This document shows, one piece after another, positions 45,425 through 49,143 of a DNA stretch of 64,000 nt. The stretch is taken from the NCBI GenBank assembly GCA_963665295.1, contig OY762209.1:2912001-2976000 (forward strand), given 5' to 3'. The number at the start of each line of letters is the position of its first letter. The stretch's first letter is position 1. Below the pieces are notes generated by a model that saw nothing but the letters and a program-made list of their open reading frames with translations, was not told the origin of the DNA and ran no database searches. The translations under genes and the position numbers were made by a program. Source of the DNA: Syntrophorhabdaceae bacterium (lineage in GTDB: Bacteria > Desulfobacterota > Syntrophorhabdia > Syntrophorhabdales > Syntrophorhabdaceae).

Positions 45425-45579
45425 GTTCCGGTTCATGCCCCGTGCGGGAGCGGCTTCTTTCTTCGTGTCTCTCGTGTTCCCGTTGACGTTTCAACCCACG
45501 CCCCCGCAGGGCAGCAAAAACTTACGCTCAATATTAGTAGATTATCAGGAGTTTCAACCCACGCCCCTTTGAGGGCGGC
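45425..45579 (-). CRISPR. Degenerate type I-C mini-array: 3 repeats, 2 spacers
   Basis: Minus-strand repeats GCCGCCCTCAAAGGGGCGTGGGTTGAAAC (45579-45551), GCTGCCCTGCGGGGGCGTGGGTTGAAAC (45515-45488), GCCGCTCCCGCACGGGGCATGAACCGGAAC (45454-45425); 3' ends exactly 63 bp apart; spacers 35 and 33 nt. Confidence 0.85.
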
Positions 45580-45656
45580 ACCATCATTTATTGCTTACGG
45601 AAACCAGGCCCGAAGGCCGGTTCCGATCGGTTCCTCCGTCGGTCTTTCTCCGGCGC

Positions 45657-46544
45657 TCAGATCTTTTCCTCCATGGTCACTCCATTCGGCAGCCTGTCCG
45701 TATCGACTGCAATCACGTAGTCGGTGAAGGCGCGGGCAGGTTCGGAATCGTCCCTGCGACGACCCACACGAACAAGGTCAAACAGCTTATGGGCGGGAGC
45801 GTTGCCCAAAGCGGAATCATGCTTGAATACCATGAGCCTTCGGGCATTCATCTTTCCTCTTGAGGCGGAATGATCATGGTCGAACATATTTACCAGGGAG
45901 TCCCAGAATAACTGGAGGTCTTCCCCAGAGAAACCTGTCTGCTGAGCGAGATGAGCGGATACGTAGCCTTCGGCGCGATAGAGCGCGTAGGGAACGATGT
46001 GTTTCCTGCCCATGGTGCGGTTATCACCGCCCTGCTGCTCCGCTTCCTTCTCGGTAGCCACGGCCATCCTTGTAATGCTTACCTCCGTGGGAACAATGGC
46101 CTCGATGCTGCGGGCAAAACAGAGTTGCACGGGACCCCGGACCTGCCCACAGTTTATTTCGAGGGCCATGACCGCCCCAAAGGTGCGCACGTCGTAGAAA
46201 TTGGCGCACATCCAGGCCCGGGCCTTCTCCACTTCATCCGCCGTGCCTTTGCGTCCTTTTCCGCTCACCCTGTCTTCGACTCCCACGGCTTGATGGGCGC
46301 GCCTGTGGGTCTGGTTGAGAATGGCCTTTTCCCGTACATAGATTTCATAGGGAGACTGATTGCTCTTCGCGATTTCAACGAAGTTCCGGACCTTCCTCTT
46401 GAGGCAGACGTCGGTTACCAGGCCGAAACTTGTCTCCGGGTCGATGCGGGGCATGTTTCCCGCATCGGGGTCTCCGTTGGGGTTTCCGTTTTCCACATCA
46501 AAGAGATATACGAACTCGTACCTGTTCCTGATGATCTCGTCCAT
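45657..46544 (-). CDS. cas7c: Type I-C Cas7c/Csd2
   Basis: [64 protein letters not shown] before ATG 46544. Confidence 0.96.
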   Translation of the reverse strand: MDEIIRNRYEFVYLFDVENGNPNGDPDAGNMPRIDPETSFGLVTDVCLKRKVRNFVEIAKSNQSPYEIYVREKAILNQTHRRAHQAVGVEDRVSGKGRKGTADEVEKARAWMCANFYDVRTFGAVMALEINCGQVRGPVQLCFARSIEAIVPTEVSITRMAVATEKEAEQQGGDNRTMGRKHIVPYALYRAEGYVSAHLAQQTGFSGEDLQLFWDSLVNMFDHDHSASRGKMNARRLMVFKHDSALGNAPAHKLFDLVRVGRRRDDSEPARAFTDYVIAVDTDRLPNGVTMEEKI

Positions 46545-46908
46545 ACTGCTGATCCTCCTTGAGGGCTTCCGATTTGACATAGAATGACTGTCGCTGATGG
46601 TAGTACCCTATGGCAAACATACCCTGGTCATCAAGGCTCAGGTGGGTAGGCAGCTTCTTTATCCCATATATGATTTCCTGGACCATTCTGTCGGTCCTGC
46701 CGCCATATTCGGCCTTCTGCAGATGGTGCTGGGCCAGTCTGAAGAGCTGCGGAAACACAATGCTCGGGGTCGTTGAAGCCGACCCGTAGTACCGATCCTT
46801 TATGGTGGAATTTATACCGGGGATGGCGTCTTTCTGTGCCTTCTCCAGCACGGCAAAAAGCCTGCCCAAGCGGTAGGCAATACTGGTTGACTCTGTATCC
46901 AATGACAT
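46498..46908 (-). CDS. cas11c: Internally translated Cas11c small subunit
   Basis: In-frame ATG (MSLDTES...) preceded by GAGGAGG at 46920-46914, at the position of the known hidden I-C small subunit. Confidence 0.8.
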   Translation of the reverse strand: MSLDTESTSIAYRLGRLFAVLEKAQKDAIPGINSTIKDRYYGSASTTPSIVFPQLFRLAQHHLQKAEYGGRTDRMVQEIIYGIKKLPTHLSLDDQGMFAIGYYHQRQSFYVKSEALKEDQQYGRDHQEQVRVRISL

Positions 46909-48255
46909 ACGGACCTCCTCTGTAATGTTATGGACGCGGTATTTTCTGTTAAGGAACGCCTTGATCATGGCGGCGCGCGCATAGTTTATGGTCCGGTCGG
47001 CGCGAATCCTGCTGAGAAGGACCGGAAGCAGGCTTTCGGGGTAGGGTAGGCCTGTAAGAATGGAGCGCATCACGGCCCCCGCGAGAACGGCGGGAATATT
47101 GTCCGTCTTCCCCATGGCCGCCGTCTCTCTCAGGAGTTGCCACATACCGGGGAATTCCGGGTCTTTTTCGCCCCGTACTATGGCGAGATCCCGAAAATGT
47201 TCTCCTATCCGGGTGCTGATCTCCGCTATCGTGCTTACATACCAGAACCGGACGGACAAGCGGGAAGAGTTGGGTGACAGTCCCAGGATATAGAAGTCAA
47301 GCTCCGGTTCGTCTATGCCGGGCGGCAACGCGCCGTCCCGCACCGCCTTAAGGAATATACGGACATCCGCCGCATCGGCCGACCCGCTTCCAGGGTCGAG
47401 GATAGCGCTCATAAACCCCTCGACAGGCGAGGCGCGCTCAGTCCAGAAGACCGTCGTCGCGTCGCCGATCCTTATCTTCTGACCGCTCTCAAAGCGAAGC
47501 AGGTGGTTGAGTGCGGTCGTATAGCCGAAAGCGACGCTCTCACACACGGGGGCGTTGAAATTCTGCGTCTTGTTGTAGGAACGGAAGGCTTCCAGATTAA
47601 ACGATATTATACCTGCTCCCGCCGACTGGGCCCCCTGGACGCCCTTGATAGGAGGATGGAGACGGGCTATAGGTCCGGTGACTCCCGTGACAAGGCAGGT
47701 AGCGACAACTTCCGAGCCCTCCTTGATACAATGTTTTGCCCAGGCTTCCCGTATGGCCGGGCGTTCGTGAATATATGTCGGCTCACCGTCGAGCTGGAAA
47801 ACAAGATTAGCGCCGGCTATCTCTTCCCAATGTTCCATCTGCGAAAAGTCCTCGGGATTCCATGAATCGAGAAATCGGAGGACCGCCGTCATGCCGGGGT
47901 CGCCCATGGATTCGCCCAGATTGTGATGGAGTTTCTTGAAAGCCTCGAAACATTTCAAAGACCTGACGCCATTTCCCTTGGCATCCCGGCCCAGCACATA
48001 GCCGCTGTTATCCCACATGAAATTCGGCGTAATATCGACGGCTCGCTTCCTCCCTATCACCGGGACGGTAAGCGCAATGGGAACAGGTTTCTTTCTGGCC
48101 TTGTCCCGAATATCCTTCACCTGAAGAAGGATGCCCTCTTCGTTGAGAACAAGAACGAAATGGACCTTCTCGCTGCCGAATCCGAGAAGGGGGATGTCGG
48201 TTTGGGGGTCATCTCTCAATCTTTCGTAATGGTGGTTAAGGGCTTGAAGTATCAC
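46498..48255 (-). CDS. cas8c: Type I-C Cas8c/Csd1
   Basis: [59 protein letters not shown]. Confidence 0.95.
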
Positions 48256-48902
48256 GCCTTTACCGCCTTTCCGCCCGGGGGTGGCACGTCTATCGCGCCG
48301 TCCCTCATGACGGCCCTAAAGAATTTGGCTTCCATCTGGTTATCAAAATCGATATCGTGGAGCATCCAGCCGAGGTCCTTTTTCCCTTTATGAACAGAGC
48401 AAGGTACGTCTTCGACCGGCGCGAAATGAGCGGCAAATTCCCGGCACCCCAAATAAGGGTAATGAAAACACTGGCCTTTGCCCGCCCGTCTGTCGAAGAC
48501 CTCTTTATGCTTTGCCGGGTTGTTGTCTTCGTTTCCTTTGAATTCAAAGTGGGCCTCGATGACATAGGACACGTTTCTCAGGACCAATGAAGCCCGCTGT
48601 TGGCGATCCTCCTCGATGAAGACCTGAACCGGGGAATACCCGTCGTTCATCGCCTTCCTTACCGATCCCATCGCCAATTTGCCTGCGAGTTCATGGCGTC
48701 TCACGTTATCGAAGCGGATGGGGTTAAGTACATGAATACGGTCAACCACCCACCTGATGGCAGGTTTCCAATAAACGGCCTCCAGTATCCCCCTTGCCGC
48801 GGACGGCGTCATCACATCATAGCTGACGCGTTCCACTTTCATCTCGGGACGTGTAAAACAGGCATAATCTCCCCAAACCTTCAGTTTCACGCCATAAGAC
48901 AT
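48252..48902 (-). CDS. cas5c: Type I-C Cas5c/Cas5d pre-crRNA processing subunit
   Basis: [54 protein letters not shown]. Confidence 0.97.
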
Positions 48903-49114
48903 CGCCGAACCTCTCCCGGAAACCTGATGATACTTCCCACATCACCAAAATTAGTCTGCCCCATGCGAGTAAAAAGCCAACCCACAGTCACGTAACCGGG
49001 AGGATGAGCCGCCGTATTGTAATTGTTGGCGCGTTAAGCTTTAGAGCAACATGGCGGGTCTCGAGCGGAGCTTCCACGCGGGTTCGTTTTTCACCGTTGG
49101 TGATTTGCACACAA

Positions 49115-49143
49115 ATTTTAAGGCATGGATGAAGAAAAATCAA
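49115..49143 (-). promoter_or_regulatory. Putative sigma70 promoter of the cas5c-8c-7c operon
   Basis: TTGATT-N17-TAAAAT on the minus strand in an AT-rich intergenic tract. Confidence 0.55.

Follow-up and report, generated by a model that had tools for sequence, protein, structure and literature searches.

A Cas3-less type I-C Cascade locus with a two-spacer mini-array and a partial, PAM-flanked match to bamB: a candidate RNA-guided DNA binder in a Syntrophorhabdaceae bacterium

Canonical type I-C CRISPR-Cas systems (short palindromic repeats that are clustered and regularly interspaced, with their associated proteins) are exemplified by those of Desulfovibrio vulgaris and by the Cascade-Cas3 of Neisseria lactamica (PDB 7kha, 8dex, 8g9s-8gan), Cascade being the antiviral defence complex associated with CRISPR. 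Here we describe a reduced locus of this type from a Syntrophorhabdaceae bacterium, hereafter the orphan, which lies within a stretch of 64,000 nucleotides (nt) designated the window (G000:C1:2912001-2976000) in a genome (G000) that consists of one contig of 5.5 Mb. The orphan resembles the canonical systems in its three Cascade genes with a nested Cas11c, in its repeat family and in the TTC protospacer adjacent motif (PAM) at the one target found, but differs from them in having no cas3, cas4, cas1, cas2 or leader, only two spacers, unlike repeats, a G in the repeat handle and a self-derived guide. All features of the module lie on the minus strand, in the order cas5c, cas8c, cas7c and then a mini-array whose three repeats differ from one another and enclose two spacers, the first of which matches bamB, a gene elsewhere on the same chromosome. 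With a rough probability of 0.4, we read the module as a working DNA binder that would be aimed at bamB without cutting it. On its gene content the orphan is a member of type I-C as an effector module; as a system it is without an adjacent cas3, the adaptation genes cas4-cas1-cas2 and a leader, and thus does not amount to a complete type I-C locus.

Several other described systems share part of this organisation. CreR/CreA and the regulatory mini-arrays (PMC10120712; 10.1101/2023.03.10.532045; PMC8501985) have in common with the orphan their degenerate repeats, fixed guides, partial PAM-proximal pairing and an expected binding without cleavage; however, they sit in complete systems and target a cas promoter or a toxin within the locus, whereas the orphan has no nuclease of its own and a catabolic target 2.4 Mb away. 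The type I-C loci with fused Cas8-Cas5 reported by Altae-Tran et al. 2023 (PMC10910872) are also Cas3-less and were suggested to be DNA binders, but the genes of the orphan are unfused, of ordinary length and accompanied by a mini-array and a candidate target; overlap with the data set of that paper is possible. Closest in its parts list (cas5, cas8 with cas11, cas7 and a short array), TTC PAM and expected mechanism is the engineered type I-C CRISPR interference (CRISPRi) in which N. lactamica Cascade was placed in Neisseria gonorrhoeae (PMC10865793). That arrangement is man-made, with full 35-nt matches near promoters and a preference for the non-template strand within open reading frames (ORFs), whereas pairing of the orphan guide would be with the template strand and extend over 21 nt. 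The Tn7-like CRISPR-associated transposons (I-F3, I-B) and, in Pseudomonas oleovorans, a self-targeting system of type IV-A (as related in PMC10120712) likewise combine nuclease loss, fixed or atypical guides and non-destructive targeting, but the orphan has neither transposition genes nor DinG and is of a different subtype. No unfused, chromosomal, Cas3-less type I-C locus with a fixed array and a chromosomal target was found by full-text searches of an open-access library, and the print record may hold one.

The match to bamB is provided by spacer 1 (31 nt, 45520..45550), positions 1-21 of which are identical (21/21; BLAST E 2.4e-5) to G000:C1:5394340..5394320, 2.4 Mb from the module. The three bases preceding this match are TTC, given as the type I-C PAM in 10.1101/2022.06.15.496202 and PMC10865793. 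Over its full length the spacer matches at 26/31 positions, with mismatches at 22 and 26-29, and by our own arithmetic the confinement of all five to the last 10 of 31 positions has a p of about 0.0015. Such partial PAM-proximal complementarity beside a correct PAM is characteristic of CRISPR RNA (crRNA)-like regulators, as is the enclosure of a fixed guide by degenerate repeats, which is also seen here. The match occupies nt 165-185 of a gene for 653 amino acids (aa), whose product scores 1171 bits over its whole length against a solved Geobacter "benzoyl-CoA reductase, putative" (4z3w); judged by this similarity the gene is bamB, for the catalytic subunit of class II benzoyl-CoA reductase, and it is followed downstream by Fe-S, HdrD-like, FdhD and HdrA-like genes. 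A second bamB at 4.71 Mb, 69% identical, matches the spacer at 22/31 positions, and the PAM is replaced there by TGA. Among the relatives' genomes searched, 4 of 40 hold a homologous site within 1-3 mismatches of the PAM plus 21-mer. At all four of these sites, and in the paralogue, the distal bases are those of the target, so the deviation lies on the side of the spacer.

The region upstream of bamB (L012 10575-10940; G000:C1:5394575-5394940) carries three copies of a promoter-like element within 350 nt, each with TTGACA, a -10-like box and a GTGAATA-N-ATTCAC palindrome, an arrangement suggestive of an operator that is repeated and bound by a dimeric regulator.

The Cascade genes themselves are of full length. 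The product of cas5c (48252..48902, 216 aa), the pre-crRNA endonuclease and a Cascade subunit, matches PF09704 (1.1e-47) and TIGR01876 (1.2e-57) and aligns over its entire length with the solved Cas5c of D. vulgaris and Xanthomonas oryzae (264-266 bits). That of cas8c (46498..48255, 585 aa), the large subunit involved in PAM reading and Cas3 docking, matches PF09709 (1.3e-184) and TIGR01863 (3.4e-168), scoring 467 bits with Cas8c of D. vulgaris and 361 with Cas8 of N. lactamica, and that of cas7c (45657..46580, 307 aa), the backbone subunit, matches PF05107 (5.8e-109) and TIGR02589 (4.3e-124). The three stand in the order cas5c, cas8c (Csd1), cas7c (Csd2) that is expected of a type I-C effector module, with full-length matches to its families in Pfam, NCBIfam and PADLOC and with scores above the curated cut-offs. 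A single deviation (N to H, in cas5c) is found among 176 near-invariant columns, 46 of which belong to cas5c, 59 to cas8c and 71 to cas7c. The hidden gene for the small subunit, Cas11c, is predicted to be intact as well: a frame of 136 aa within cas8c (46498..46908) starts at Met450, 5 nt downstream of the Shine-Dalgarno sequence GAGGAGG, with a methionine in the same column in 62% of 87 homologues, and residues 451/452 to 562/566 of the cas8c product match the solved Cas11 chains.

The mini-array begins 74 nt after cas7c, or 77 nt if its first repeat is taken to be 3 nt shorter. Repeat R1 (45551..45582), in which the 11-nt tail TGGGTTGAAAC comes after a hairpin of 6 bp, scores 23.2 bits (E 5.6e-4) with a covariance model built from the repeats of 30 relatives; R2 (45488..45519), with a weaker hairpin than R1, scores 14.1 bits (E 0.18); and R3 (45425..45456), a degenerate terminal repeat in which the hairpin is kept and the tail altered, was missed by the model. 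R1 and R2 thus have the form of type I-C repeats, with a hairpin to position 21 and an 11-nt handle ending in GAAAC, of which R3 retains only the hairpin. The 3' 17 nt of R1 and R2, which take in the handle together with the stem's 3' half, are identical, whereas about 6 of the 14 positions of the 5' part differ (Fisher p about 0.004, our own arithmetic). The handle has a G where 27 of 30 relatives have an A. By its layout, the set of three repeats would allow two units to be read, each consisting of an 11-nt handle, a guide and a 3' hairpin. That the unlike repeats are a leftover of the trailer end is disfavoured, as 18 of 20 relatives' arrays (two of the 20 being the same DNA) end in three repeats that each depart from the consensus by one mismatch at most. 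The 3' part of R3, ATGAACCGG, reads the same as the 3' end, which supplies the 5' handle, of the type I-E repeat in this genome.

Spacer 2 (45457..45487, about 31-32 nt) has no convincing match. Its best match in the genome covers 23/32 bases without a PAM, its first 20 nt gave nothing in IMG/VR, and searches of phages yielded no match and those of plasmids only matches of E >=3. The 21-mer of spacer 1 is likewise absent from IMG/VR, and neither spacer matched the viral, phage or plasmid collections; the silencing of a mobile element, which the initial annotation had offered as one possible function, is therefore without support.

Much else in that annotation stands: it had described the cas5c-cas8c-cas7c set as intact, which the full-length family matches bear out, an array 77 bp after the cas7c stop codon without cas4-cas1-cas2 or a leader, about 500 bp of non-coding DNA without a cas3 remnant upstream of cas5c, and ordinary flanks free of tnsABC/tniQ and integrase genes. 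The non-coding region (48903..49399, minus strand) measures 498 nt, separates cas5c from a housekeeping HD gene and is the place occupied by cas3 in relatives. No repeat-like unit was found in it by a repeat search that included the covariance model, and it contains a sigma70-like promoter candidate (TTGATT-17-TAAAAT, 49115..49143, minus strand) in an AT-rich stretch. In tblastn searches of 44300-50700 with all ORFs of eight relatives' loci (E up to 10), no remnants of cas3, cas4, cas1 or cas2 were found, and the sole recurring weak matches (E 0.06-0.3) fell on the HD motif of the neighbouring HD gene. This gene was considered as a Cas3 remnant or stand-alone Cas3'' and rejected: it encodes a generic HDIG protein (TIGR00277) with no PADLOC match, has orthologues of 65-71% identity in many relatives without this Cas8c, and is a conserved housekeeping gene present in 30 of the 41 genomes searched, G000 included. 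Neither a transposase or integrase nor tnsABC or tniQ occurs within 33.7-56 kb of the window, where the flanking genes are ordinary chromosomal ones, and the tnsA/B/C plus tniQ that accompany a nuclease-less Cascade in a CRISPR-associated transposon are thus missing from this interval.

Three features argue for the module having been retained for some use. The apparent losses are three separate ones, and they are clean, sparing exactly the promoter region, the three genes and the repeat-spacer-repeat-spacer-repeat unit. Conservation within the array also appears non-random, since the handles and the 21 nt on the seed side have stayed fixed, unlike the 5' repeat halves and the distal end of the spacer, which have changed. 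Finally, a locus in another genome, described below as L102, is an independent parallel. As to its origin, the module may have arisen from a complete type I-C system by loss of cas3, cas4-cas1-cas2, the leader and most of the array, leaving an RNA-guided DNA-binding core. Guide 1 was probably an accidental self-derived spacer at first; from being lethal, it would have become tolerated and possibly of use through nuclease loss together with blunting of its distal end.

In such a module Cas5c would cut a short transcript into two crRNAs on which Cascade would assemble, and the first complex would open a partial R-loop of some 21-25 bp on bamB, with the PAM-distal mismatches (22, 26-29) blocking the full R-loop. 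According to 10.1101/2023.08.05.552134, Cas3 docks solely on the full R-loop state of type I-C Cascade; if this is the state that the Cas3 of type I-C needs, the bamB site would be bound and not cut, despite the presence of a Cas3 of another lineage in the cell. The bound complex would then be a roadblock on one of two bamB operons, in the manner of CRISPRi. Mechanistic precedents are given in two of the papers above, namely gene repression by a Cas3-less type I-C Cascade with a TTC PAM (PMC10865793) and regulatory mini-arrays that act via partial complementarity (PMC10120712). In its most specific form the proposal is that of a natural, hard-wired CRISPRi: a nuclease- and memory-less type I-C Cascade kept because its fixed guide parks on one of the two bamB operons and so controls the key dearomatising enzyme of an anaerobic degrader of aromatic compounds, with the blunted distal end and the altered handle preventing it from triggering the Cas3 of the other system. 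We regard this form as possible but doubtful.

The genome holds two further CRISPR systems, a complete type I-C locus (L010) at G000:C1 1.16-1.18 Mb, with a Cas3 of 811 aa, Cas5c, a Cas8c of 773 aa, Cas7c, Cas1c, Cas2 and approximately 94 repeats, and a complete type I-E locus at 2.43-2.45 Mb. Both cas3 genes of the genome belong to these loci and lie 0.5 and 1.8 Mb from the module. The proposal of a repurposed binder would be contradicted by a compatible type I-C cas3 acting in trans from elsewhere in the genome, and this is partly what is found: a type I-C cas3 is present, but it is of a deeply divergent lineage, its product sharing 34% identity with the Cas3 encoded at the sister locus of the orphan. 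Identities between the orphan and the complete type I-C locus are 22% for Cas8c, 27% for Cas5 and 30% for Cas7, and the Cas8c of the latter scores under the family cut-off.

A solitary type I-C-type repeat was also observed at G000:C1:3741775-3741803 (plus strand; L214 7775-7803), scoring 31.1 bits with the repeat model, above R1 of the orphan. It lies in an intergenic gap of a contractile-tail or prophage-like cluster (sheath, tube and baseplate genes) and may represent an RNA anti-CRISPR that mimics a repeat, such as PMC10651486 describes.

For comparison with relatives, 150 related loci were assembled, 80 from reference genomes and 70 from metagenomes. A cas3 gene lies directly upstream of cas5 in 72 of the reference loci, and in the eight without a cas3 match cas5 is within about 900 nt of a contig end or cut by it. 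Among the metagenome loci cas3 is present in 43, and the remainder are cut by contig ends except for L114, which has no cas3 in 9.3 kb upstream and has kept cas4-cas1-cas2 and an array. Nearly all relatives with enough flanking sequence are therefore complete, and the reduced form is a derived one and, to date, a singleton. In a tree of concatenated Cas5, Cas8 and Cas7 from 71 loci, the sister of the orphan is L027, a complete locus; the branch leading to the orphan (0.29, as against 0.20 for L027) is ordinary for the family, ranking 31 of 71. The nearest relative is separated by about 0.5 substitutions per amino-acid site, a distance at which an analysis of non-synonymous to synonymous rates would meet saturated synonymous sites.

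A search among relatives for the same cas3-less architecture, as proposed in the initial annotation, yielded no clade and one independent parallel. This is L102 (L102 4632-5074, genome G041), in which cas5-8-7, with a Cas8c 46% identical to that of the orphan, precedes seven repeats spaced at 58-74 nt per unit; the stem of the hairpin differs from repeat to repeat, the 11-nt tail behind it is the same in all, and one spacer-plus-flank unit is duplicated at the end of the array. No adaptation genes were found in the 3.1 kb downstream, and neither a cas3 of its own lineage nor a significant self-target was found in the incomplete assembly, which also holds a complete type I-C system of another lineage. 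The closest relatives of L102 (77% and 70%) are complete loci. Its equivalent of the Cas3-recruit loop is only 21% identical to the family consensus.

Other partial loci with the same family of Cas8c were noted, namely L114, L115 and L047; L155 and L037, in which cas3 is present and there is no cas4, cas1 or cas2 within about 9 kb; and L153, on a short contig, in which the array begins 478 nt after cas7. A solitary repeat-like unit stands some 350 nt upstream of cas3 in an otherwise complete type I-C locus (L212 3808-3847; G046:C61) and is possibly a crRNA-like regulator. Between cas7 and cas4 of L025 (11892-12710, G003) lies an ORF of 272 aa without a Pfam match, whose tblastn matches coincide with those of cas4 in four loci (L038, L039, L081 and L100); by this coincidence, it may be a divergent Cas4-like paralogue.

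The reading of the module as a bamB binder has to be weighed against three others. The module could be a second Cascade serving immunity, supplied in trans with crRNAs from the array of approximately 94 repeats and with the Cas3 of the complete type I-C system, its own mini-array being a disarmed leftover; the benefit would be a very different extra effector, which might for instance escape inhibitors of the first. The presence of Cas3, Cas1c and Cas2 in the same genome would permit this, and the repeats of L010 fit the repeat model of the orphan's lineage better than does R1 of the orphan (40.2 versus 23.2 bits). The same pairing of a minimal type I-C locus with a complete one of another lineage recurs in the genome of L102, the recruit-loop equivalent of the orphan is undecayed, and a Cas3 in the cell would give the distal mismatches of guide 1 a meaning, namely to disarm it. 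However, the two systems are as far apart as the identities above indicate in every subunit, the other Cas8c, at 773 aa, is under the family cut-off, the resident Cas3 is distant from that of the sister locus, and the identical handles of R1 and R2 are left unexplained; we consider this account rather unlikely. That the module serves self-regulation or addiction after the manner of CreR/CreA, with a guide repressing the cas promoter or a nearby toxin, is suggested by the mini-array with degenerate repeats beside cas genes (compare PMC10120712 and PMC8501985), but no seed match flanked by a PAM was found for either spacer within 44800-49500 or the two remaining CRISPR loci, the best local match being 9/10 of the seed with the wrong PAM, which is at chance level. 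As the target is neither the cas promoter nor a toxin of the same locus, this is very improbable.

The remaining alternative is that of a young autoimmunity relic, in which a bamB spacer was acquired, survival was possible only through loss of cas3, and further deletions followed at a rearrangement-prone site, leaving a module that is functionless and not yet decayed. Stern et al. reportedly described in 2010 a pattern of self-derived spacers with cas loss and degenerate repeats; a host-derived spacer and loss of the interference gene are found here, and they do not separate a relic from an exapted module. Self-targeting is also treated in PMC7708048. Several of the observations that weigh against a bamB binder fit such a relic. 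The best Cas8c identity anywhere is 72-73%, and the closest relatives (61-73%) are all in complete loci; this partly bears out the concern that close relatives might carry the full operon, although they do so at other sites. The reduced form is, among the loci found, a singleton with no conserved clade, so long-term maintenance appears unsupported. The window carries an inversion relative to the same-genus genome G001, with the segment from a Cache-domain gene to cas5 exactly at the breakpoint beside the HD gene; the entire Cache-lipoprotein-array-cas segment is absent from G001, and an inversion breakpoint is a place where deletions are expected. The stretch of Cas8c aligned to the Cas3-recruit loop of N. 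lactamica (A276-P297) shares 62% identity with the family consensus (rank 22 of 87), and this equivalent, being as conserved as in Cas3-bearing relatives, shows no apparent relaxation, which would fit recent Cas3 loss or use in trans. Finally, no target was found for spacer 2.

Other points tell against the binder in their own right. The sigma70-like promoter proposed in the initial annotation exists as a site, but it matches the consensus at 9/12 positions and a promoter scan gave 5 sites against 2.9 expected by chance, which is not above chance and leaves the candidate weak by itself. Guide 1 has the sequence of the coding strand of bamB, so that within an ORF its crRNA would be paired with the template strand, which in the work on gonococcal type I-C CRISPRi (PMC10865793) is the less favoured orientation for a roadblock. 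The cluster of distal mismatches could, moreover, come from one rearrangement and not from five selected changes.

Against a relic, on the other hand, random decay would have to spare three genes, the Cas11c start, 175 of 176 near-invariant residues, both handles and the first 21 bases of the spacer, and meanwhile alter the 5' halves of the repeats and five of the last 10 spacer bases, with no gene fragments remaining. In type I systems, escape from self-targeting by mutation of the spacer is expected in the seed or PAM, but here the changes are at the distal end. The remaining cas genes show no signs of neutral decay, although a recent loss would show none either. On balance, a relic seems unlikely to us. 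The original proposal of a self-sufficient RNA-guided binder repurposed for repression is thus partly supported: the full set of parts, the lack of a nuclease of its own and, beyond what that annotation contained, the PAM-flanked 21-nt match to bamB speak for it, and the type I-C cas3 elsewhere, the complete relatives, the undecayed recruit loop and the missing clade count against it. The bamB binder and the second Cascade are compatible readings, and taken together they make a functional Cascade fairly probable.

The surroundings of the module may be described briefly. A small lipoprotein-like ORF converges on the array beside R3 and is followed by the secreted Cache-domain gene. No Rfam family matched in 44800-49500, and the fold of the whole region from cas7 to the array does not exceed that of shuffled sequence in stability (z -0.12). 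In four sequencing runs, all contigs over the locus were identical to the window, with no strain variants. The inversion was seen by comparison of 34.9-44.3 kb of the window with G001:C109:41960-50302, and the TPR and DeoC genes, neighbours in G001, are parted in the window by an inserted glycogen-phosphorylase-like gene (50672-52801).

The coexistence of minimal and complete type I-C loci in two unrelated genomes raises the question of whether Cas3 and crRNAs are shared across type I-C lineages. Even if the orphan is a relic, it would be a clear snapshot of a self-derived spacer, cas3 loss and blunting of the distal end of a guide going together. The known natural regulation by type I Cascade acts on the CRISPR locus itself, through cas promoters or linked toxins, and the known nuclease-less derivatives of type I serve transposons. 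If the module does bind bamB, it would offer a natural CRISPRi module of compact size, its lineage being near that of the D. vulgaris complex of solved structure, and class 1 RNA-guided regulation would extend to ordinary metabolism, in the form of a core catabolic gene.

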